Source: Gammaproteobacteria bacterium
Lineage (GTDB): Bacteria; Pseudomonadota; Gammaproteobacteria; Pseudomonadales; Azotimanducaceae
NCBI GenBank assembly: GCA_018645845.1
Contig: JABGVY010000132.1
Span: 1 to 54,166, forward strand
Length of the DNA stretch: 54,166 bases
Reading direction: 5' to 3'
The notes beneath the pieces are model-generated. The model was not told the DNA's origin and made no database searches. It was given only the letters and a program-made list of their open reading frames with translations. Every line of letters begins with the position of its first letter. The first letter of the stretch is position 1. Both the position numbers and the translations under genes were made by a program. Shown in pieces: positions 4,807 through 46,544 of the stretch.

Positions 4807-5214
4807 GGTTCCCCCCCCCACCATTTGGTGGATTTTATTTTTATTAATTATTTTAGGAACGTACTTTTTTTTCATCCTTCTACTACAACTGCCAAATCTG
4901 ACGTTTGTATTCATAACCGTCAGAGCTGACTGTTTTGTTGGAGATTACACCATAGGAGAATAGTCTGTTCCGGTCAATGGTATAAGAAAGCAATAATATT
5001 AGCGGGTTGCAGACTCACTGGAGCCGTTACTCAAAGGTGCTGCTTTGAACGCTGTTGCGATCCCGCCGCAACCATAGGTAATTAGCGGGCCACCGACGAT
5101 TTTATTCTGGGATGTTGCAGCCGGAATAGCATTTGATGGCAGGTAGCCTTCGCCGATTAGCAAAAAGAATGGGTGGTTTTACAGAGACCGTAATGTGCCC
5201 TGAGCAGATTCAGT

Positions 5215-5946
5215 TTAGAGTTCGACCTTAATGGCGAGCGGCGGCATGGCGGGCGGAGGTTTCGTCGAATAAGACTTCGTTCTGCCCTCTGGAGATAATA
5301 AAGGGTGAACGTCCTCAGGGGTCAGCACCTGCCACCTTCCTGGTTGTAACAAGGTTTTGACCATCATTCGGTTGATGTTCGTCGAACCTTTTGTTCGATA
5401 TTGCACATCAAGTGACACCCAAATTTCACTGTCTAAAGGAGAAACAATGACCTTCACGAACTCTGCTCTGGCCCCTGAATTTGTAGCCAGTATTGGGAAA
5501 ATGCTAAATACTTGCGGCTGTGTTAATTGTAAAATAATGGGTTCGTTTGCTAAACCCGTTGCCGTCAGTTCCGCTCGATTGATTCCGCTCTGATAATAAC
5601 GGGAATGTTCGTCTTGCTTCCCCGCGTGTTGGTTGACGACATGGTCGAAATCGAAAAAAACATTCACTGTTACTGGTCTGAGGTCTAATTGGCGAAGAAG
5701 TTTTTTAGCCGATGCGACGCTGTGGGTTGAACCCGTGCAGATTAGTTTGTTTGCATAAGCGGCTGTCTGCAATTCACTATCGGACAGTTGATCGAAAACG
5801 ACTTTGAGGTCTTGTGCGGGCAAAAATTTAGGAACATAAACCCATTCAACGGTAGTGTCAGCCTGCTCTTTCGCCGTAAGGTGGCTTGTCAAAAATATAT
5901 ACAGAGCGACAACGAGAATCTTTTTTAGAAAGGTTTTGTTTTTCAT
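5215..5946 (-). CDS. Secreted hypothetical protein; the N-terminal part resembles a secretin-N (N1-type) domain
   Basis: 243 aa with signal peptide MKNKTFLKKILVVALYIFLTSHLTA. The segment VYVPKFLPAQDLKVVFDQLSD...NKLICTGSTHSVASAKKLLRQLDLRP follows the pattern of secretin N-domains, by eye only. No secretin C-domain is present. Confidence 0.5.
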   Translation of the reverse strand: MKNKTFLKKILVVALYIFLTSHLTAKEQADTTVEWVYVPKFLPAQDLKVVFDQLSDSELQTAAYANKLICTGSTHSVASAKKLLRQLDLRPVTVNVFFDFDHVVNQHAGKQDEHSRYYQSGINRAELTATGLANEPIILQLTQPQVFSIFPILATNSGARAEFVKVIVSPLDSEIWVSLDVQYRTKGSTNINRMMVKTLLQPGRWQVLTPEDVHPLLSPEGRTKSYSTKPPPAMPPLAIKVEL

Positions 5947-6381
5947 TTTCTAACCTGCGCTAGGAGCATCAAGTAAATAGGTAATTAAGGGTGGCGCTGT
6001 TCAAATTATTCGAGTTAAACAAATGGTTATTATAGGGCTTCTACGAACTATGGTGTACCAGGGTATTGTCCTTATAGAGTCCTAACGCGGATCATCCGAA
6101 CAGCCTGTCAATGACCGATATACCGGGGCGAAGCAGCTGCCGCGTCGAGCTCCCGGCACTTTTTGGGTTGGGGTTTTCATTTGCGGGGTGTGGTTGTTGA
6201 CACTCACGTGTCTGTGATCACGGAGACCGTGCCCTTGTCACCGGATACTAAAAATTCGCTATTGGGCGAACCAAAGCATTGAATCCAGCGCTTAAGAAAA
6301 AGGCGATGTGCACAGCAGGTAAAATAAATGAGTGGCACAGCCTAGGATCATAGCTGAAACCCTTTATATGCTATGCGGGAC

Positions 6382-10005: not shown

Positions 10006-10587
10006 CTAACCTGATTTGTTGTCAACGAAGGATGCTACCTGGCGGCGGTGGTGCCGAAAAATAATTTTGTCGAGCAGCGCCTTAGAGGCATTGCTTTGAC
10101 CAAAGAAGCGCGCCGATACCCAATCGTCTGCGTTGTCGTATTCCACTATCTCTGCCGAAAACATCAACGGTTTGGGGATATCTGGGGACAAGTACATGCC
10201 CAGTCTAACCATTTTGCCCACAGGAAAAAGTTTGTCGGTTGGGTCAACGCAGAAACGTATGCCCCGGGTGTTAAATTTAATATGTGTGGTTTCTGGTAAC
10301 GTGAGTTGCTGTTTCACCAGGTCGCTGAGGATCGTCATCAGCAAATTGACCTTATGGTTGAGCAGACGAACTTCATTCTGCAAGTCAGACATTTCGTTGT
10401 CAGGATCCACCAGATCGTTCTCCTCGTGGACAGACATAGAGCGCAATAGTTTCTCATTGGCTTTGGTGTCGTGAAGGATATCGACGTCGGCCATCGGGGC
10501 GTCGAGCAGTTCTACTGCCAGAGGTACTCGGTCTTCATAAATCAGACGATCAAAAAAGTCTTCGTCGGTGAAGGTATTGTCAGGCAA
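10006..10587 (-). CDS. PilZ-like protein (atypical PilZ type without an obvious RxxxR motif); possible c-di-GMP effector
   Basis: 193 aa with a TTG start, supported by the SD AAGAGGAG 5 nt upstream. A long helix (LQNEVRLLNHKVNLLMTILSDLV) is followed by a beta-rich core (IKFNTRGIRFCVDP...VRLGMYLSPDIPKPLMFSAEIVE) and a C-terminal IIFRHHRRQVA, as in atypical PilZ proteins. The family call is from memory. Confidence 0.55.
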   Translation of the reverse strand: MPDNTFTDEDFFDRLIYEDRVPLAVELLDAPMADVDILHDTKANEKLLRSMSVHEENDLVDPDNEMSDLQNEVRLLNHKVNLLMTILSDLVKQQLTLPETTHIKFNTRGIRFCVDPTDKLFPVGKMVRLGMYLSPDIPKPLMFSAEIVEYDNADDWVSARFFGQSNASKALLDKIIFRHHRRQVASFVDNKSG

Positions 10588-25162: not shown

Positions 25163-25420
25163 ATGTGGCTTAGATTAGCGCTCGAAATACCCGAGTCTTC
25201 TATACGTCTCTGGTACGAAGGACGCGTGCAGCAAGTTATCGCAACCGATCATACCGGCAGGAAAGTGCAGTTCCCTATAGGCATACTCAGGCCTTTTATT
25301 ACCCATGACGGGGTTTCTGGCGTCTTTGAGCTCGAGGTTGAGCAAAGTGGGCGGCTAGCCTCGATAAAAAGATCGGTTACTCGCCACCGGGGCCCTCAGC
25401 AAGCGAACAGCTTGATCTAG
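25163..25420 (+). CDS. Small DUF2835-like protein
   Basis: 85 aa, starting 2 nt after the flgN stop. The pattern YEGRVQQVIATDHTGRKVQFPIGILRPFITHDGVSGVFELEVEQSGRLASIKR matches my memory of the DUF2835 family; this is unverified. Confidence 0.5.
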   Translation: MWLRLALEIPESSIRLWYEGRVQQVIATDHTGRKVQFPIGILRPFITHDGVSGVFELEVEQSGRLASIKRSVTRHRGPQQANSLI

Positions 25421-25584
25421 CTGTTCTGTACCAAAGACGAGACACCTTAAATGCCCCCGCAGGTCGTTAGCGAGTGAAATCGAAGCCGTCTCAATTCCTA
25501 AAGTTTCATGGTTTCGAATGCCTTAAAAACATATCGGTTATTTACGTATTATTTTACTTCCAATAAGAAACCTGTCTAAAACGC

Positions 25585-25598
25585 GGTAACCAATCGTC
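25585..25598. promoter_or_regulatory. Operator-like 14-mer GGTAACCAATCGTC; related copies lie at 25686-25699 and 25926-25939
   Basis: It matches GGTTACCAATGGTC, the head of each 240-bp unit, at 12 of 14 positions. The core GGTWACC is palindromic. The three copies are spaced 101 and 240 bp apart. Confidence 0.35.
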
Positions 25599-25684
25599 CG
25601 CTGCTGTAAATTTTGCATTTCATGTAACGCTTGCAGCCCAGTAAGAATGGTCGTTACAGCCTTCTAATGAATTCTCGTTAAGAA

Positions 25685-26164
25685 GGGTTACCAATGGTCA
25701 CAAACGGTTACTTGTTGTTCCTCCTGCACTTACCTGGGTTTTTTATAGTACCTACATGATTTATCAAACCACATATGTTTTCTCTTCCGATTTGGCCTTG
25801 GGGCCTCAATCGAGGCGACCAACAGAGTTAAGGGGCCAGTCATCGGTCTCTCTAAAAAAGGCAGTGAGCGGCAGTGTCGATATAAGTTTTGGGCCTAAAG
25901 CCGAGTGCTTTTCCTTGTTGGCAGGGGTTACTAATGGTCACAAACGGTTACTTAATGTTCTTAGTGCGCTTACTTCGGCCTTCTATAGTACCTACATGAT
26001 TTATCAAACCACATATGTTTTCTCTTCTGATTTAGCCGCGCGAATTCGCTCCAGGCGATCAAGTGAGTTAAGGGGCCGGTTATCCGTTTCTCTAAAAAAA
26101 GCAGTGAGCCGCTGTGTTGGCACAAATTTTGGATGTAATGCAGAGAGCTTCTCCCTTTTGTTGG
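25685..26164. repeat. Tandem direct repeat, 2 x 240 bp, immediately upstream of the fleQ-like gene
   Basis: The offset is exactly 240 bp. A 44-nt block is identical in both copies (25744-25787 = 25984-26027: TATAGTACCTACATGATTTATCAAACCACATATGTTTTCTCTTC). A 29-nt block has 1 mismatch (25685-25713 vs 25925-25953). The remaining stretches are diverged. Confidence 0.95.
26118..26133 (+). promoter_or_regulatory. Weak sigma54-like element in the second repeat unit, upstream of the fleQ-like gene
   Basis: TGGCAC-AAATT-TTGG: the -24 element is perfect, but the -12 element reads GG instead of GC. It is absent from the first repeat unit. Confidence 0.25.
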
Positions 26165-26203
26165 TTTTGGTTGTTTTTTTGACAGCTGAGACCTTTAGGA
26201 CGA

Positions 26204-27199
26204 TTGACGTTTAAGATGCTGGATAATACGACACGCCTTTTAGGCCAGAGCAAGTTGATGAGCGAAGTACGTAACCTCGTTGAAAAGGTTGCTGCGAGTG
26301 AAGCCAATGTTCTGATTCTAGGAGAAACCGGTACAGGAAAAGAGCTTGTTGCCCGCAGTATTCATGAAAACTCAGATCGAAAAAATGGCCCCTTTGTACC
26401 CATTAACTGTGGTGCCATACCGGCAGAACTGCTTGAGTCGGAATTATTTGGTCATGAGAAGGGTGCATTTACCGGCGCGGTCTCTGCCAGAAAAGGGCGT
26501 TTTGAACTCGCAGAAGGTGGCACGTTATTCCTCGATGAAATAGGTGACATGCCGCTCGATATGCAGGTCAAGATTCTGCGGGTTTTACAGGAAAAAGTAT
26601 TCGAGCGGGTAGGTGGAAGCAAACAGATCGCTACCGATGTCAGAATCATTGCCGCTACTCACCAAAACCTGGAGTCACAGGTTGACCGGAATGAATTCCG
26701 GAGGGATCTTTACTATCGTCTGAACGTATTTCCGATTGAAACGCCACCACTTAGAGATCGCCAGGATGATCTGCCCATCTTAATCGATTCGATGGTAGCG
26801 CAGTTTGGCAGCGGCGGTGACCACATCTCGTTTGACGAAAAATCTACTCAAGCGCTGCAGCAGTGCGAATGGGAAGGGAATGTTCGTGAGTTACTGAACG
26901 TCATCGAACGTTTATCGGTTCTCTACCCGGCAGAGATAATTGATGTCGAGCGACTGCCTGCCAAGTATCGGCCTTCAGAGCCTTGTATAGATGTCGCGAC
27001 AGAGACATCTTCAGCATTGAACGATATGGCTGAAGAGGTCGTTGATCTAAAAATGACAGTTCAGAATTTTGAAGCCAGTTTCATTCGTAAGGCATTGGAA
27101 CTTACTGCAGGCAACGTTTCTCAAGCAGCCGCTAAGTTGAGCCTTCGACGAACAACACTCGTTGAGAAGATACGGAAATATGACATCAACTTTGCGTGA
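26204..27199 (+). CDS. fleQ: FleQ/FlrA-like sigma54-dependent transcriptional activator lacking the N-terminal (FleQ/REC-like) domain
   Basis: 331 aa from TTG 26204, or 327 aa from ATG 26216. The AAA+ domain begins about 12 residues in ([40 protein letters not shown]...[15 protein letters not shown]). A C-terminal Fis-type HTH is present ([23 protein letters not shown]). Upstream sequence has stops in all frames. Confidence 0.85.
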
Positions 27200-27268: not shown

Positions 27269-27284
27269 AGGCACGAGAATTGCA
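27269..27284 (+). promoter_or_regulatory. Sigma54 promoter of fleS-fleR
   Basis: AGGCACG-AGAA-TTGCA, 35 nt upstream of the fleS ATG. Confidence 0.75.
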
Positions 27285-27318: not shown

Positions 27319-28467
27319 ATGGAATCGATCAGACACCCTACACCCGAGACGAGCTATCCAGCCTGCCTTTCTGAGTCACTGGAAAAACTGCGCCAATCAT
27401 ATGATTTTGCTTCAAGAGAAATAAACGATCTGATCACGGAGCGATCCCCTCAGCAGGTCTCGACCTGCAAGCCCCAACCTCTAGCTGATAGTTTGACCGC
27501 TCTGGTGAATGATATGCCGGCGGGCGTCGTCGTGCTGGACAGGCATAACAAGGTCTTACTCGCAAACCCGATGGCAATTATGCTCTTCGAAGTACCGCTT
27601 TTGGAGAGTGACTTTTTAGAGGTGATCCAGCAGACGGCTATGAGCATTGATGCTAGCGGTCAGCAGCTCAAGCTTTGGACCGGTCGAAGCCTGTCTATTG
27701 TTAGTCATGTTCGACCAACAATGGGTGACCAAATTGTCATTCTTAATGATGTTTCGGCGATGGCAGACTGGTTAGGTCTCGAAGGCGTAGGTCAATCTAC
27801 TGCGCTCATGGCCCATCAATTACGTACCCCCCTCAGCGCTGCCATTTTGTATCTTGGTCAGTTATCAACTGAATCAAAACAGGCTGAAGTGGCGGTTGAT
27901 ACTGTAGGGAAATTAGGCGTGTGCCTGAAACAGCTTGAATTTTTCATCAACAAGCACCTGGAAAACACTCGCTGGATAAACTGTCCGCTCAAAGATCAGG
28001 ACGTGTCGTTAAAGGGCGTGCTTCAAGTGTTGGAAAAGACTTTGGCGCCCATTGTTGAAAAAAGTGGCGGCCAGTTCAGCTTGGATTTACCTGATGAAGA
28101 CTTGGTTATCTGTAGTGATGAAGATGCCCTGTTAGCCGCTTTAACCGCGATCGCCGAAAATGCGCTGGCGATTGAGGACGGCGTTAGCTGCATGGTTTCA
28201 GCTACAGTGTCTGGTCGAGCGCTTGAAATTGCCGTCTCGGATAACGGCCCAGGTATCCCTAAGGAAAACCTGTCTAAAATATTCAATCCATTTTATACCA
28301 CTCGCCAGGGTGGCAGTGGCCTGGGGCTTACAATGGCTTATCAAATCGCTCAGCGCTTTGACGGTGATTTGACCGCCAGCAATAGGCCGTCAGGCGGAGC
28401 TAGTTTTCTTTTTAGGCTACCGTTGACGAGAGTCAGGTCTTGTCAGCAATCGCCGGCAGGGAAATAG
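27319..28467 (+). CDS. fleS: Cytoplasmic PAS-type sensor histidine kinase FleS/FlrB
   Basis: 382 aa with no TM segment. H-box MAHQLRTPLSAAILYL and ATPase boxes (DNGPGIP, TTRQGGSGLGLTMA) are present. It lies upstream of fleR. Confidence 0.85.
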   Translation: MESIRHPTPETSYPACLSESLEKLRQSYDFASREINDLITERSPQQVSTCKPQPLADSLTALVNDMPAGVVVLDRHNKVLLANPMAIMLFEVPLLESDFLEVIQQTAMSIDASGQQLKLWTGRSLSIVSHVRPTMGDQIVILNDVSAMADWLGLEGVGQSTALMAHQLRTPLSAAILYLGQLSTESKQAEVAVDTVGKLGVCLKQLEFFINKHLENTRWINCPLKDQDVSLKGVLQVLEKTLAPIVEKSGGQFSLDLPDEDLVICSDEDALLAALTAIAENALAIEDGVSCMVSATVSGRALEIAVSDNGPGIPKENLSKIFNPFYTTRQGGSGLGLTMAYQIAQRFDGDLTASNRPSGGASFLFRLPLTRVRSCQQSPAGK

Positions 28468-28497: not shown

Positions 28498-29829
28498 ATG
28501 AAGCAGCAACATAACGGCCAGATTCTTGTCGTCGAAGATGATACTACATTGCGTGCGGCGCTCTGCGACACCTTGAAAGCAGCTCATTTTAGTGTCCTGG
28601 AGGCGAGCAATGGGCAGTCAGCGTTGACAGTTTTGTCTAATGAGCAGGTTGATGTAGTGATTAGCGATGTGCAAATGCCGTCGATGGACGGGAATGCCTT
28701 GCTTGATAACGTCGTATCCCTATGGCCCAGCACGCCGCTTGTGCTTATGACCGCTTATGCAGAAATTTCTGCGGCGGTCAGCGCGATACATCGAGGCGCT
28801 GTTGATTATCTGGTTAAACCTTTTGAAGCAAAAACGCTTATCGATCTCATAAGCCGATTGGTTTCTGTGACGAAGCAAAAAGCGGTTATTGCCGAAGACC
28901 CAAAAACCCAGGCGTTAATGGATTTTGTCAGCCGGGTAGCAGCATCTGAAGCTAATGTGATGATCACTGGCGAGTCCGGTTCCGGCAAGGAAGTTTTCGC
29001 CCGCATGATTCATGATCAATCGAATCGCTGCAATGCGCCGTTTGTCGCTATTAATTGCGCGGCTATACCGGAATCAATGCTCGAAGCAGTGTTGTTTGGG
29101 CATGAAAAAGGAGCCTTCACCGGCGCAACTCAAAGCCAGCAGGGAAAATTTGAATTAGCCAACAAGGGCACATTACTGCTCGACGAGATTTCTGAAATGG
29201 ACTTGTCGCTGCAATCAAAGCTCCTGCGGGTTCTGCAGGAAAAAGAAGTCGAAAGGCTAGGCAGTCACACTGTGATTAACCTTGACCTTCGGGTACTCGC
29301 AACCTCTAACCGAAATCTGGTGGAGGAGGTCGCAGCCGGACGGTTTAGAGAAGATCTTTATTACCGCCTGAACGTGATTCCACTGGCAGTACCTCCGTTG
29401 AGAGAGCGGCCGGAGGATATTCTTCCGCTGGCAAAGTTCTTTCTTGAGAAATACGCCACGGGTCGCTCCTGCAATTTTGCTGAATCAGCAAAAATGGCGA
29501 TTCATCGGCATACATGGCCGGGGAACATTCGTGAGTTGGAAAACGTTGTTCAAAGAGCCCTGGTGATGCAGGTAGGTGAGAGTATCACGGCGGAGGATCT
29601 GCACTTTTCACAGATACCGGGTGGTCAGCAGGATCAATCGGTTTCTGAAACTGGCGCCGGGAATAAATCTGAAACAGGCTTAAAGGGTAATGAGCAAAAC
29701 CTGATTTTAGAAGTATTGCGTGAGGAAAGAGGCAGCCGCAAAGATACAGCAGAAAGATTGGGCATTAGCCCTAGAACCCTTAGGTACAAACTGGCGAAGT
29801 TCAAGGAATTGGGTGTAGAGGTTCCTTAG
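28498..29829 (+). CDS. fleR: Sigma54-dependent response regulator FleR/FlrC
   Basis: 443 aa. It has a REC domain (VVISDVQMPSMDG), an AAA+ domain ([20 protein letters not shown]) and a C-terminal HTH (DTAERLGISPRTLRYKL). Confidence 0.9.
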   Translation: MKQQHNGQILVVEDDTTLRAALCDTLKAAHFSVLEASNGQSALTVLSNEQVDVVISDVQMPSMDGNALLDNVVSLWPSTPLVLMTAYAEISAAVSAIHRGAVDYLVKPFEAKTLIDLISRLVSVTKQKAVIAEDPKTQALMDFVSRVAASEANVMITGESGSGKEVFARMIHDQSNRCNAPFVAINCAAIPESMLEAVLFGHEKGAFTGATQSQQGKFELANKGTLLLDEISEMDLSLQSKLLRVLQEKEVERLGSHTVINLDLRVLATSNRNLVEEVAAGRFREDLYYRLNVIPLAVPPLRERPEDILPLAKFFLEKYATGRSCNFAESAKMAIHRHTWPGNIRELENVVQRALVMQVGESITAEDLHFSQIPGGQQDQSVSETGAGNKSETGLKGNEQNLILEVLREERGSRKDTAERLGISPRTLRYKLAKFKELGVEVP

Positions 29830-44571: not shown

Positions 44572-45711
44572 ATGGAAATTAGGCGTTTCAAAGGTAACGA
44601 CATGAGAGAGGGGATGCAACAAGTCCGAAGCTGTCTCGGGGACGAGGCTATTATTCTGTCTACGCGCTCGGTCGGTGACCAAGTCGAAATACTGGCCTCC
44701 ACCGAGAGTGCCGTGCTCGCTATCGCCAAGGAGGAGCACTTTCCTAAGCCCGTCGTCGAATCCGAAGAAACACAAAGCACAGAAAGTGACAGGTCGTCTC
44801 AATTTCTGGGAGAGGAGAAGCTGGCGCATCTGGAAACAGAGATAGTTGAACTTAAGAATATGCTTTGTCAGGAGTTAGGGCGACTTCAGAGGTTTCCGGA
44901 ACCGGTTTCAGGACATCCGGATTCGCTGGTAACACGTCTCGTGAATACCGGCATGTCCCACTCGTATGCGCAAGAGCTAACCGCGACCTGGCGGCCAAAA
45001 CCAACGACCATGGGCCAACTGGGTGCACGCTTGTCCGCATTGATTTCGTCATGCGATGAAGAGTGCGTCAGTGAATCGGGTATACATGCGTTTATCGGTG
45101 CCTCAGGCGCCGGTAAAACAACCACAGTCGCTAAGCTAGCGGCTCGATATGCATTGAAATATGACCGAAAGGATATCGTCTTGATCAGCACTGACCGGTT
45201 TAAGATTGGTGGTCAAGATAAGCTAGAGGGCTATGGGCAGCTATTGCAGATCGATGTGATGGCAGCTAACAGCGTCCAGGAACTGTCAAAGTTGCTACGC
45301 AAATACAATAACCGGCGAATGATATTAATCGACACGGGGGGCATGACGCGCCATAAACGCGACGAGCTGCTTTTCAAGTATCTCGGTGGAGCTACTGTAA
45401 ATGGCAGGAAAATACAAAATACCCTTGTGGCTTCCTCATCCAGTCAACAGAATCAGCAGGATCTCATTATCGAATCATTTGGTCGGGAAAACCTGTCATC
45501 TGTGGTGTTAACCAAGACAGACGAAGCGATAACTCTGGGGGCTGCGCTATCAACGCTTACCAGGCACCGGCTACCTTTGGCTTATCAGGGAAATGGCCAG
45601 GGGCTATCGGATTTGGTGCTTCCTGATGTAAGAGAGCTGGTCCAGTCTTTTTTGCAGGGTTTTCAATCTAAAGCCAAAATAGAAATGCAGCATGTAGAGA
45701 GCATATCGTAA
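44572..45711 (+). CDS. flhF: Flagellar placement SRP-type GTPase FlhF
   Basis: 379 aa. N-terminus MEIRRFKGNDMREGMQQVRSCLGDEAIILS; G1 GASGAGKTTTVAKLA; DTGG; TKTDE. Confidence 0.9.
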   Translation: MEIRRFKGNDMREGMQQVRSCLGDEAIILSTRSVGDQVEILASTESAVLAIAKEEHFPKPVVESEETQSTESDRSSQFLGEEKLAHLETEIVELKNMLCQELGRLQRFPEPVSGHPDSLVTRLVNTGMSHSYAQELTATWRPKPTTMGQLGARLSALISSCDEECVSESGIHAFIGASGAGKTTTVAKLAARYALKYDRKDIVLISTDRFKIGGQDKLEGYGQLLQIDVMAANSVQELSKLLRKYNNRRMILIDTGGMTRHKRDELLFKYLGGATVNGRKIQNTLVASSSSQQNQQDLIIESFGRENLSSVVLTKTDEAITLGAALSTLTRHRLPLAYQGNGQGLSDLVLPDVRELVQSFLQGFQSKAKIEMQHVESIS

Positions 45712-46544
45712 TGGATCCAGCTCACTTACCCTCACAAACATCTTTGCCGCGTGTTATCTGTGTCACGAGCGGCAAGGGCGGCGTTGGTAAAACCAATGTC
45801 GCGGTCAACCTTGGAGTTTCTTTGAGTAAGCAGGGTAAAAAGGTTTTGCTTCTGGATGCTGATCTGGGACTTGCGAATATCGATGTCTTGCTAGGTTTGA
45901 AGCCTCAATATACGTTGCACGATGTCTTGTCGGGTGAGCGGTCTATTCAAGATATCATCATAGACGGGCCTGATAACCTCCGCATCATTCCAGCTAGTTC
46001 TGGCATTGAGTTAATGAGCAACTTGTCTCATGCCCAGCAAGCCAGGCTCATTCAGGCGGTCTCTGATCTTGATATCCAAATTGATTATTTGATTGTTGAT
46101 ACCGCAGCAGGGATTGCCAAGGATGTGATGGCATTTGCTTCAGCTAGTCAGGATGTGTTGGTCGTGATGGCAGATGAACCCGCGTCGCTTGCCGATGCCT
46201 ACGCCTTGATCAAAGTGATGAGCAAAAGTCATGCGGTAAAGCGATTTAATATCCTATGCAATATGGTTTCCAATGAATTAGCAGGCAGAGCACTGTTCGA
46301 TCGGCTGGTGAGCACTACCGATAAGTTTCTCCAGGTTAGTTTGACACACCTGGGCTCGATACCTGCGGATGACTATTTACGCAAGGCTGTCAGGACCCGT
46401 AGCGCAGTGGTCAGCGCTTACCCAAACTGCTCGGCTAGCAAATGTTTCAGACGCCATGCTGAATCGATAGACAATTGGCAACATCAGGATCTGTCAGGCG
46501 GCATTCAGTTCTTTTTTGAACGCTTTTTGCAGGTAGAGAACTGA
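45711..46544 (+). CDS. flhG: MinD-type ATPase FlhG/FleN (flagellar number regulator)
   Basis: 277 aa with a deviant Walker A (SGKGGVGKTNVAVNL). It lies between flhF and fliA. Confidence 0.9.
   Translation: MDPAHLPSQTSLPRVICVTSGKGGVGKTNVAVNLGVSLSKQGKKVLLLDADLGLANIDVLLGLKPQYTLHDVLSGERSIQDIIIDGPDNLRIIPASSGIELMSNLSHAQQARLIQAVSDLDIQIDYLIVDTAAGIAKDVMAFASASQDVLVVMADEPASLADAYALIKVMSKSHAVKRFNILCNMVSNELAGRALFDRLVSTTDKFLQVSLTHLGSIPADDYLRKAVRTRSAVVSAYPNCSASKCFRRHAESIDNWQHQDLSGGIQFFFERFLQVEN

Follow-up and report, generated by a model that had tools for sequence, protein, structure and literature searches.

A FleQ/FlrA orthologue without an N-terminal regulatory domain in a flagellar gene cluster of a marine gammaproteobacterium

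The 54,166-nt contig JABGVY010000132.1 of assembly GCA_018645845.1 (Gammaproteobacteria bacterium, Azotimanducaceae), the whole stretch of which is referred to here as the window, carries a flagellar gene cluster in which the position of fleQ is taken by a gene for a protein of 327 amino acids, henceforth short FleQ. This protein consists of an AAA+ core, a lid and a helix-turn-helix (HTH) domain, is conserved and transcribed, and has lost the motif by which FleQ of Pseudomonas aeruginosa binds cyclic di-GMP (c-di-GMP). We consider it likely that short FleQ is a true FleQ/FlrA orthologue, expressed and kept by selection, that it acts as a c-di-GMP-blind activator, and that its control has been relocated.

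In Pfam searches, short FleQ matched Sigma54_activat (residues 12-179, E 1e-76), AAA_lid_14 (184-260) and HTH_8 (287-326), and matched neither the FleQ N-terminal domain PF06490 nor Response_reg. The AAA+ domain begins about 8 residues past the ATG, and Walker A, GAFTGA, Walker B, sensor II and GNVREL are all intact. The domain search thus agrees with a prediction made earlier from the sequence alone (the original prediction), according to which a protein of about 327-331 residues comprises AAA+ plus HTH, and the FleQ-like AAA+ motifs quoted there are present in the translated protein. The original prediction had left the start open between TTG 26204 and ATG 26216. Position 26205 is a C (TTG to TCG) in sister assemblies and in 7/8 metatranscriptomes, while ATG 26216 is invariant; since the TTG is not conserved, we take the ATG as the start of the 327-residue product, which settles the question. 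The frame opens just 7 codons 5' of the TTG (open frame, 338 amino acids). No well-spaced Shine-Dalgarno sequence precedes either candidate start; an AGGA ends 15 nt 5' of the ATG.

The best PDB matches of short FleQ were the AAA+ domain of Vibrio cholerae FlrA (363 bits, E 8e-108) and P. aeruginosa FleQ (352 bits, E 2e-104), with ZraR at 253 bits; across the AAA+ and HTH regions, short FleQ shares 54-59% identity with P. aeruginosa FleQ and V. cholerae FlrA. Residues 11-328 align with residues 147-482 of the 492-residue FleQ chain; as the alignment runs from about FleQ residue 145 onward, short FleQ begins where the linker between the receiver (REC) domain and the AAA+ domain ends. In a phylogenetic tree, the protein lies within the FleQ group, apart from FleR and NtrC. 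Moreover, the gene order at the locus is flgA-flgM-flgN-DUF2835-spacer-fleQ-fleS-fleR-fliE, followed by fliF. The assignment to FleQ/FlrA is supported by PDB matches, tree and gene position alike, and the canonical slot before fleS-fleR is borne out by gene order and Pfam, both as originally proposed. NCBIfam gave sub-threshold matches only, to many equivalogs among the bacterial enhancer-binding proteins (bEBPs); orthology to PspF was rejected, with 266.8 bits for TIGR02974 against a cut-off of 443.6 and the cut-off of NF008622 missed as well. The other short bEBP in the assembly, on contig C540, is a pspF adjoining pspA and has no bearing on fleQ.

Arginines in the linker and the lid make P. 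aeruginosa FleQ a c-di-GMP receptor that switches cells between motility and biofilm formation. c-di-GMP is contacted there by R144 in the LFRS linker, by the pair R185/N186 following Walker A and by the lid residues E330 and R334; R185 and R334 take part in ATP binding as well and are needed for ATPase activity (PMC10723142). Short FleQ has kept only R185 of this site, and the LFRS linker is gone. That the ExxxR motif is missing, with DSMVAQ in its place, had previously been judged by eye; the alignment confirms it, with E330 replaced by S and R334 by Q. The complete Arg triad (R144/R185/R334) was found in 27/36 full-length FleQs, in 3/4 proteins of intermediate length and in 0/17 short forms, a short set that includes near-duplicates and amounts to roughly 12 independent lineages. 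In a broader sample of 150 cluster representatives, the contrast was weaker (1/18 short forms versus 27/103), as this set mixes in non-FleQ bEBPs and maybe fragments. FleR and NtrC, which are active ATPases, likewise do not have these residues, and their loss need therefore not impair catalysis in short FleQ. Altogether, the residue pattern suggests that short FleQ is probably unable to sense c-di-GMP as P. aeruginosa FleQ does. That it still senses c-di-GMP via other residues, with the regulatory logic unchanged, is rather unlikely: R185 is retained, an Arg lies one position from R144 (NTTR-LLG) and the organism has GGDEF proteins, but N186 is replaced by S in addition to the two lid substitutions, the linker motif has disappeared and no short form has kept the triad.

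With at least eight GGDEF proteins, the organism does have c-di-GMP signalling, and c-di-GMP could act on motility by another route. The flagellar cluster contains a gene for an atypical PilZ protein (tPilZ), which is a possible alternative c-di-GMP input to motility. A tPilZ gene also lies directly 5' of the short fleQ of a relative with 60% identity (locus L145, 5205-5777).

The N-terminal domain is truly absent. The 783 bases upstream of the gene (25421-26203) contain 18, 15 and 3 stops in the three forward frames, and tblastn with the N-terminal domains of 36 full-length FleQs gave noise in this region (best E 0.013, on the wrong strand) and no match at E<=0.01 in the whole window. It had been stated that this upstream sequence has stops in every frame and no remnant of the domain; this holds, with the correction that one frame contains a 152-codon open reading frame (ORF), the leader ORF. 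The source assembly is a metagenome-assembled genome (MAG) of 591 contigs, and this fragmentation together with the tandem repeat immediately upstream of fleQ would fit an artefact or pseudogene, i.e. a frameshift or misassembly at 25.4-26.2 kb that removed the domain, or a decaying gene. We regard this explanation as extremely improbable. The identical 327-residue protein was found, with the same gene order, in 117 index blocks of independent assemblies; relatives with about 93% identity share the locus layout; and fleQ was found in 8 marine metatranscriptomes without indels. Moreover, the differences from the approximately 93% relatives are distributed over the codon positions as 15, 13 and 47, with a ratio of nonsynonymous to synonymous substitution rates (dN/dS) of 0.16, and the short form is conserved among relatives at 93-99%, 71% and 60% identity. 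The independent assemblies and the RNA contigs effectively exclude the assembly error that had been named as a refutation, and the domain is missing rather than frameshifted, as the original prediction held.

A search of the window and of the MAG, which is 76% complete, with the PF06490 profile found neither a second fleQ nor a split N-domain. The sole match above the cut-off in the assembly is a PilG/PilH-like REC protein adjoining pilI/pilJ-like genes; below the cut-off were a weak match to NtrC and a third, weaker match that was not inspected. There are six strong Sigma54_activat matches in the assembly, of which we inspected four, namely short FleQ, FleR, NtrC and PspF; the other two lie on contigs C253 and C531. 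Takeover of the N-domain function in trans, either by a small protein with a gene of its own (a split gene) or by whatever the leader ORF encodes, is very unlikely: that ORF has been kept open and ends 1 nt 5' of the fleQ ATG, but it has no Pfam family and its substitutions are flat over the codon positions (counts of 22/24/25; omega 0.66), and the only PF06490 match above the cut-off is the PilG/PilH-like protein.

In a class-wide sample, nearly every genome had exactly one FleQ-like match, implying that short and long forms do not co-occur. This, the canonical slot before fleSR and the retained HTH domain, which FleT reportedly does not have (PMC11999139), argue against short FleQ being an auxiliary, FleT-like or non-flagellar copy while a full-length fleQ in the unassembled 24% is the master regulator. 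The incompleteness of the MAG, the existence of hetero-oligomeric bEBP pairs (PMC9542535) and a relative with 71% identity that lies between patatin and HemolysinCabind genes rather than flagellar genes speak for such an auxiliary role, which we nevertheless judge to be unlikely.

In the co-crystal of the P. aeruginosa proteins, FleN contacts FleQ at N202, A205, S213, E214, R233, L236, E370, R371 and K389 (PMC8528422). All nine residues are identical in short FleQ (9/10 named positions, the tenth being a main-chain contact), while the paralogue FleR differs at 5/10 positions. The FlhG encoded in the window aligns over its full length to FleN residues 14-274 and has kept the C-terminal tail. 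The preserved contact residues and tail favour control by FlhG, and it is plausible that FlhG controls short FleQ in trans via the conserved AAA+ surface.

Upstream of fleQ, a 795-bp spacer contains two tandem modules, which are the only two copies in the genome. Both copies, also in the approximately 93% relatives, contain a GGGTTACyAATGGTCACAAACGGTTAC block and a TATAGT...ACATGATTTATCAAACCACATATGTTTTCTCTTC / TATAGT...ACATGATTTATCAAACC block, and conservation across the region is a mosaic. The conserved GGTCACAAACGGTTAC block was rejected as a general element of flagellar operons, as it is confined to the two modules and occurs before no other flagellar operon. In the 8 metatranscriptomes, leader RNA contigs start at 25758-25797, just past the first TATAGT, there is no depth over about 25290-25757 in 6/8 of them, and two RNA contigs span both modules into fleQ; this indicates a transcript start just after the first TATAGT, although the RNA contigs are unstranded and their ends near the repeat may be assembly-graph artefacts. 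The start of RNA contigs inside the module supports the earlier idea that the tandem module carries transcriptional control.

The leader ORF is open and free of indels in the relatives, with a probability of about 0.04 for the absence of a stop in each of two comparisons, while its sequence drifts (omega 0.66). This arrangement would fit a translated leader coupled to the start of fleQ. A sigma-54-like -24/-12 element, TGGCACaaattTTGG, is invariant in the relatives, and the 71% relative has TGGCACggttaTTGA about 100 nt before its start. Folding of the leader RNA was no better than that of shuffled sequences (z-score +0.9), Rfam gave a chance-level match only, and no homology was found between the upstream region and that of other short-fleQ loci. 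The Pseudomonas FleQ box GTCaNTAAATTGAC was rejected, with no convincing enrichment (23 versus 14.4 expected, a number reached by 4/100 shuffles). In total, the promoter and leader arrangement of fleQ is unusual.

From these features, we propose that short FleQ would bind enhancer DNA via its HTH domain, and that ATP hydrolysis and the GAFTGA loop would open sigma-54 promoters of early flagellar genes, including fleS-fleR. As a protein without a built-in regulatory domain, it may be constitutively active as well as blind to c-di-GMP, and control has probably moved elsewhere: to its own synthesis, through the duplicated promoter module, a leader (about 460 nt) that is maybe translated and coupled to the fleQ start, and maybe a proximal sigma-54 promoter; to FlhG/FleN, acting as an antagonist on the conserved AAA+ surface; and to the PilZ-type c-di-GMP receptor in the flagellar cluster.

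The original prediction had suggested a survey of orthologue lengths, and this survey showed that short forms recur across gammaproteobacterial lineages. In the protein database, short relatives of the window protein comprise sequences with 93-99% identity, a 71% cluster labelled as Pseudohongiellaceae, Pseudomonadales or Gammaproteobacteria MAGs, and a 60% cluster of 333 amino acids, whose locus reads fliC-flaG-fliD-fliS-fliT-tPilZ-fleQ-fleS-fleR-fliE-fliF-fliG. A sample of 401 genomes drawn evenly from the class contained 210 with a FleQ-like match; the 150 listed matches include 5 open frames of <=360 amino acids (about 3% equally short) and 3 of 415-431 amino acids. One of the five is in genome G435, in the order fliD-fliS-fleQ-fleS-fleR-fliE, and further short orthologues occupy canonical flagellar positions in G001 and G010. 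Proteins from a Thiomicrospira cyclica MAG (330 amino acids) and a Legionellales MAG (361 amino acids) are also short. Among the 150 best cluster representatives at 50% identity, 17 besides that of the window have a Met start <=30 residues before the AAA+ domain and are complete at the C-terminus, although some of them may be fragments. In total, the short architecture, which has a precedent in Rhodobacter sphaeroides (PMC9542535), recurs in several gammaproteobacterial lineages and is less unusual than originally held.

Within the order of the window, a FleQ-like gene is present in 152/401 genomes, and the listed FleQs are full-length except for that of the window and three short open frames, of which two run up to the end of their contig. 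Short forms of two further types occur in genomes with the genus label of the window, and 11 sampled genomes of the family's other genera have no FleQ-like gene at E<=1e-105. The three short types within genomes of one genus label, together with the negative result for the other genera, hint that the flagellar clusters were acquired rather than inherited. The third type, of 337-351 amino acids (L108/G022, L109/G004 and L110/G014), is directly followed by an orphan bEBP of 472-482 amino acids, with no histidine kinase and with fliE-fliF following; the tree groups these proteins with that of the Legionellales MAG, and the N-terminal region of the orphan bEBP has no Pfam match in the copy scanned (L108). 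The gene of the 71% relative (326 amino acids) is flanked by a patatin/POTRA gene and by small HemolysinCabind-type genes, with an upstream spacer of about 750 bp. FleQs of intermediate length (404-426 amino acids; L116/G425, L117/G113, L118/G188 and L028) have 63-83 residues before the AAA+ domain, with the LFRS linker and the Arg triad in 3/4, and may be partial N-domain deletions. The top-scoring representatives P0141, P0143 and P0144 are 900-1000 amino acids long with two or three bEBP-like stretches, and may be fused FleQ-FleR-type calls or true fusions.

The window protein groups with the 93% and 71% relatives and G435 (Shimodaira-Hasegawa-like approximate likelihood ratio test, SH-aLRT, 94), outside a well-supported clade that unites 15 full-length FleQs from the same order. 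When all 17 short forms were constrained to one clade, the likelihood was better than in a quick free search (p-AU 0.75 in the approximately unbiased test), and forcing the window clade into the order's full-length clade was not rejected (p-AU 0.44); the short forms have long branches. On this tree, both the spread of one REC-less lineage by transfer and repeated independent losses are possible. The one-clade result, the family's other genera without FleQ-like genes and the leader ORF kept open would suit a bolder reading, namely that REC-less FleQs constitute a single distinct subfamily, blind to c-di-GMP, which passes from one gammaproteobacterial lineage to another with flagellar clusters and from which the R. 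sphaeroides Fla1 regulator maybe derives, and that in the lineage of the window a duplicated promoter cassette and an obligatorily translated leader replace the lost control, leader translation being required because the leader stop lies 1 nt 5' of an ATG that has no well-spaced Shine-Dalgarno sequence; this reading is doubtful, if conceivable.

Several points weigh against the view that short FleQ is a c-di-GMP-blind activator whose control has been relocated. In addition to the redundancy of the short set, the weaker contrast in the broader triad sample and the limits of the RNA contigs, the 71% relative (L135-L137, gene 5001-5981) lies outside any flagellar cluster, and, with a MAG that is 76% complete, a full-length fleQ could lie on a missing contig. 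Moreover, the REC domain has been described as indispensable to P. aeruginosa FleQ, both for its activity and for forming a stable complex with FleN in cells (PMC10723142); by analogy, a REC-less protein with the R334Q substitution may work differently or weakly.

The coordinates of fleQ, its upstream elements and the associated genes are given in Table 1. The window also contains genes for FlhF, FlhG and FliA at 44.6-47.3 kb. Candidate sigma-54 -24/-12 elements are enriched in the window (15 versus 4.4 expected), and several of them precede flagellar operons, e.g. flgB and fleS; the candidate positions include 7643, 23132, 23389, 27269, 35284, 37116 and 38912. A contig end truncates rpoN (contig C12:4-345), such that only part of the core-binding domain is assembled while the DNA-binding domain is absent from the MAG.

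Table 1. Features of the window that relate to short fleQ and its proposed control
Feature	Position	Strand	Details
Atypical PilZ (tPilZ) gene within late flagellar genes	10006..10587	-	PF16823, E 8e-11
Two tandem 240-bp modules	25685..26164	+	About 80% identical; Tandem Repeats Finder (TRF), copy alignment
TATAGT, -10-like box of module 1	25744..25749	+	Twin at 25984-25989
152-codon leader ORF	25756..26214	+	Spans both modules; TAA stop 1 nt 5' of fleQ ATG (TAAGATG)
Sigma-54-like -24/-12 element TGGCACaaattTTGG	26118..26132	+	98 nt before ATG; one mismatch to TGGCAC-N5-TTGC
Short fleQ/flrA gene	26216..27199	+	327 amino acids from conserved ATG; TTG 26204 would add 4 residues
Sigma-54 interaction AAA+ core	26237..26740	+	PF00158, 258.6 bits; Walker A GETGTGKE, GAFTGA loop, Walker B LFLDEIG
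AAA+ lid subdomain	26753..26983	+	PF25601; DSMVAQ at the position of P. aeruginosa FleQ E330xxxR334 (c-di-GMP/ATP motif)
Fis-type HTH DNA-binding domain	27062..27181	+	PF02954, E 1.4e-10
fleS sigma-54 promoter candidate AGGCACgagaaTTGC	27269..27283	+	-24/-12 motif scan
fleS-like PAS histidine kinase	27319..28467	+	Pfam PAS_8, HisKA, HATPase_c
fleR/flrC-like REC-AAA+-HTH response regulator	28498..29829	+	Pfam Response_reg, Sigma54_activat, HTH_8
flhG/fleN MinD-type ATPase, candidate anti-activator	45711..46544	+	P. aeruginosa FleN match, E 3.6e-80; NCBIfam MinD-type
Residues at P. aeruginosa FleQ R144/R185/N186/E330/R334			T/R/S/S/Q in the window protein; alignment

Compared with known systems, the window shares with P. 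aeruginosa FleQ and V. cholerae FlrA the slot before fleS/flrB-fleR/flrC, the GAFTGA loop, the FleN-contact residues and flhF-flhG-fliA in the cluster. Unlike these two, the window protein does not have the REC-like domain of about 140 residues, the LFRS linker, N186, E330 and R334, and a duplicated module and a long leader precede its gene. Among described cases, FleQ of the Fla1 system of Rhodobacter (Cereibacter) sphaeroides comes closest; it is a flagellar master sigma-54 activator reported to lack the N-terminal regulatory domain (PMC9542535) and to have a DNA-binding domain (PMC11999139). The two proteins, likened here by description only, share the AAA+ plus HTH plan without an N-domain and the place at the head of a flagellar hierarchy; however, R. 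sphaeroides FleQ partners the AAA+-only protein FleT and not a FleS/FleR pair (PMC7277832), whereas the genes downstream of short fleQ encode a kinase and a full REC-AAA+-HTH regulator. PspF has the same plan without an N-domain, is constitutively active and is restrained by a partner protein (PMC10084136), and the genome has its own pspF-pspA on another contig. HrpR and HrpS of Pseudomonas syringae are bEBPs that likewise have no N-domain, and HrpV controls them in trans (PMC4145663); they form a paralogous hetero-hexamer that acts on a type III secretion regulon, whereas short FleQ has no paired paralogue in the window and a flagellar context.

Judged from the sequences compared, the loss of the domain appears to go together with the loss of the c-di-GMP Arg triad. 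The joint loss of domain, linker motif and triad suggests that these constitute a single regulatory module that can be lost in one piece, leaving a plain activator, and short FleQs are natural deletion variants for structural and regulatory work. The form recurs and a studied precedent exists; short FleQ is therefore useful for comparison but is not a new type of regulator. It is also a warning that the annotation "FleQ" alone is no basis for inferring c-di-GMP control of flagellar genes. For this marine lineage, the promoter and leader of fleQ, together with FlhG, become the place to look for the control of motility.

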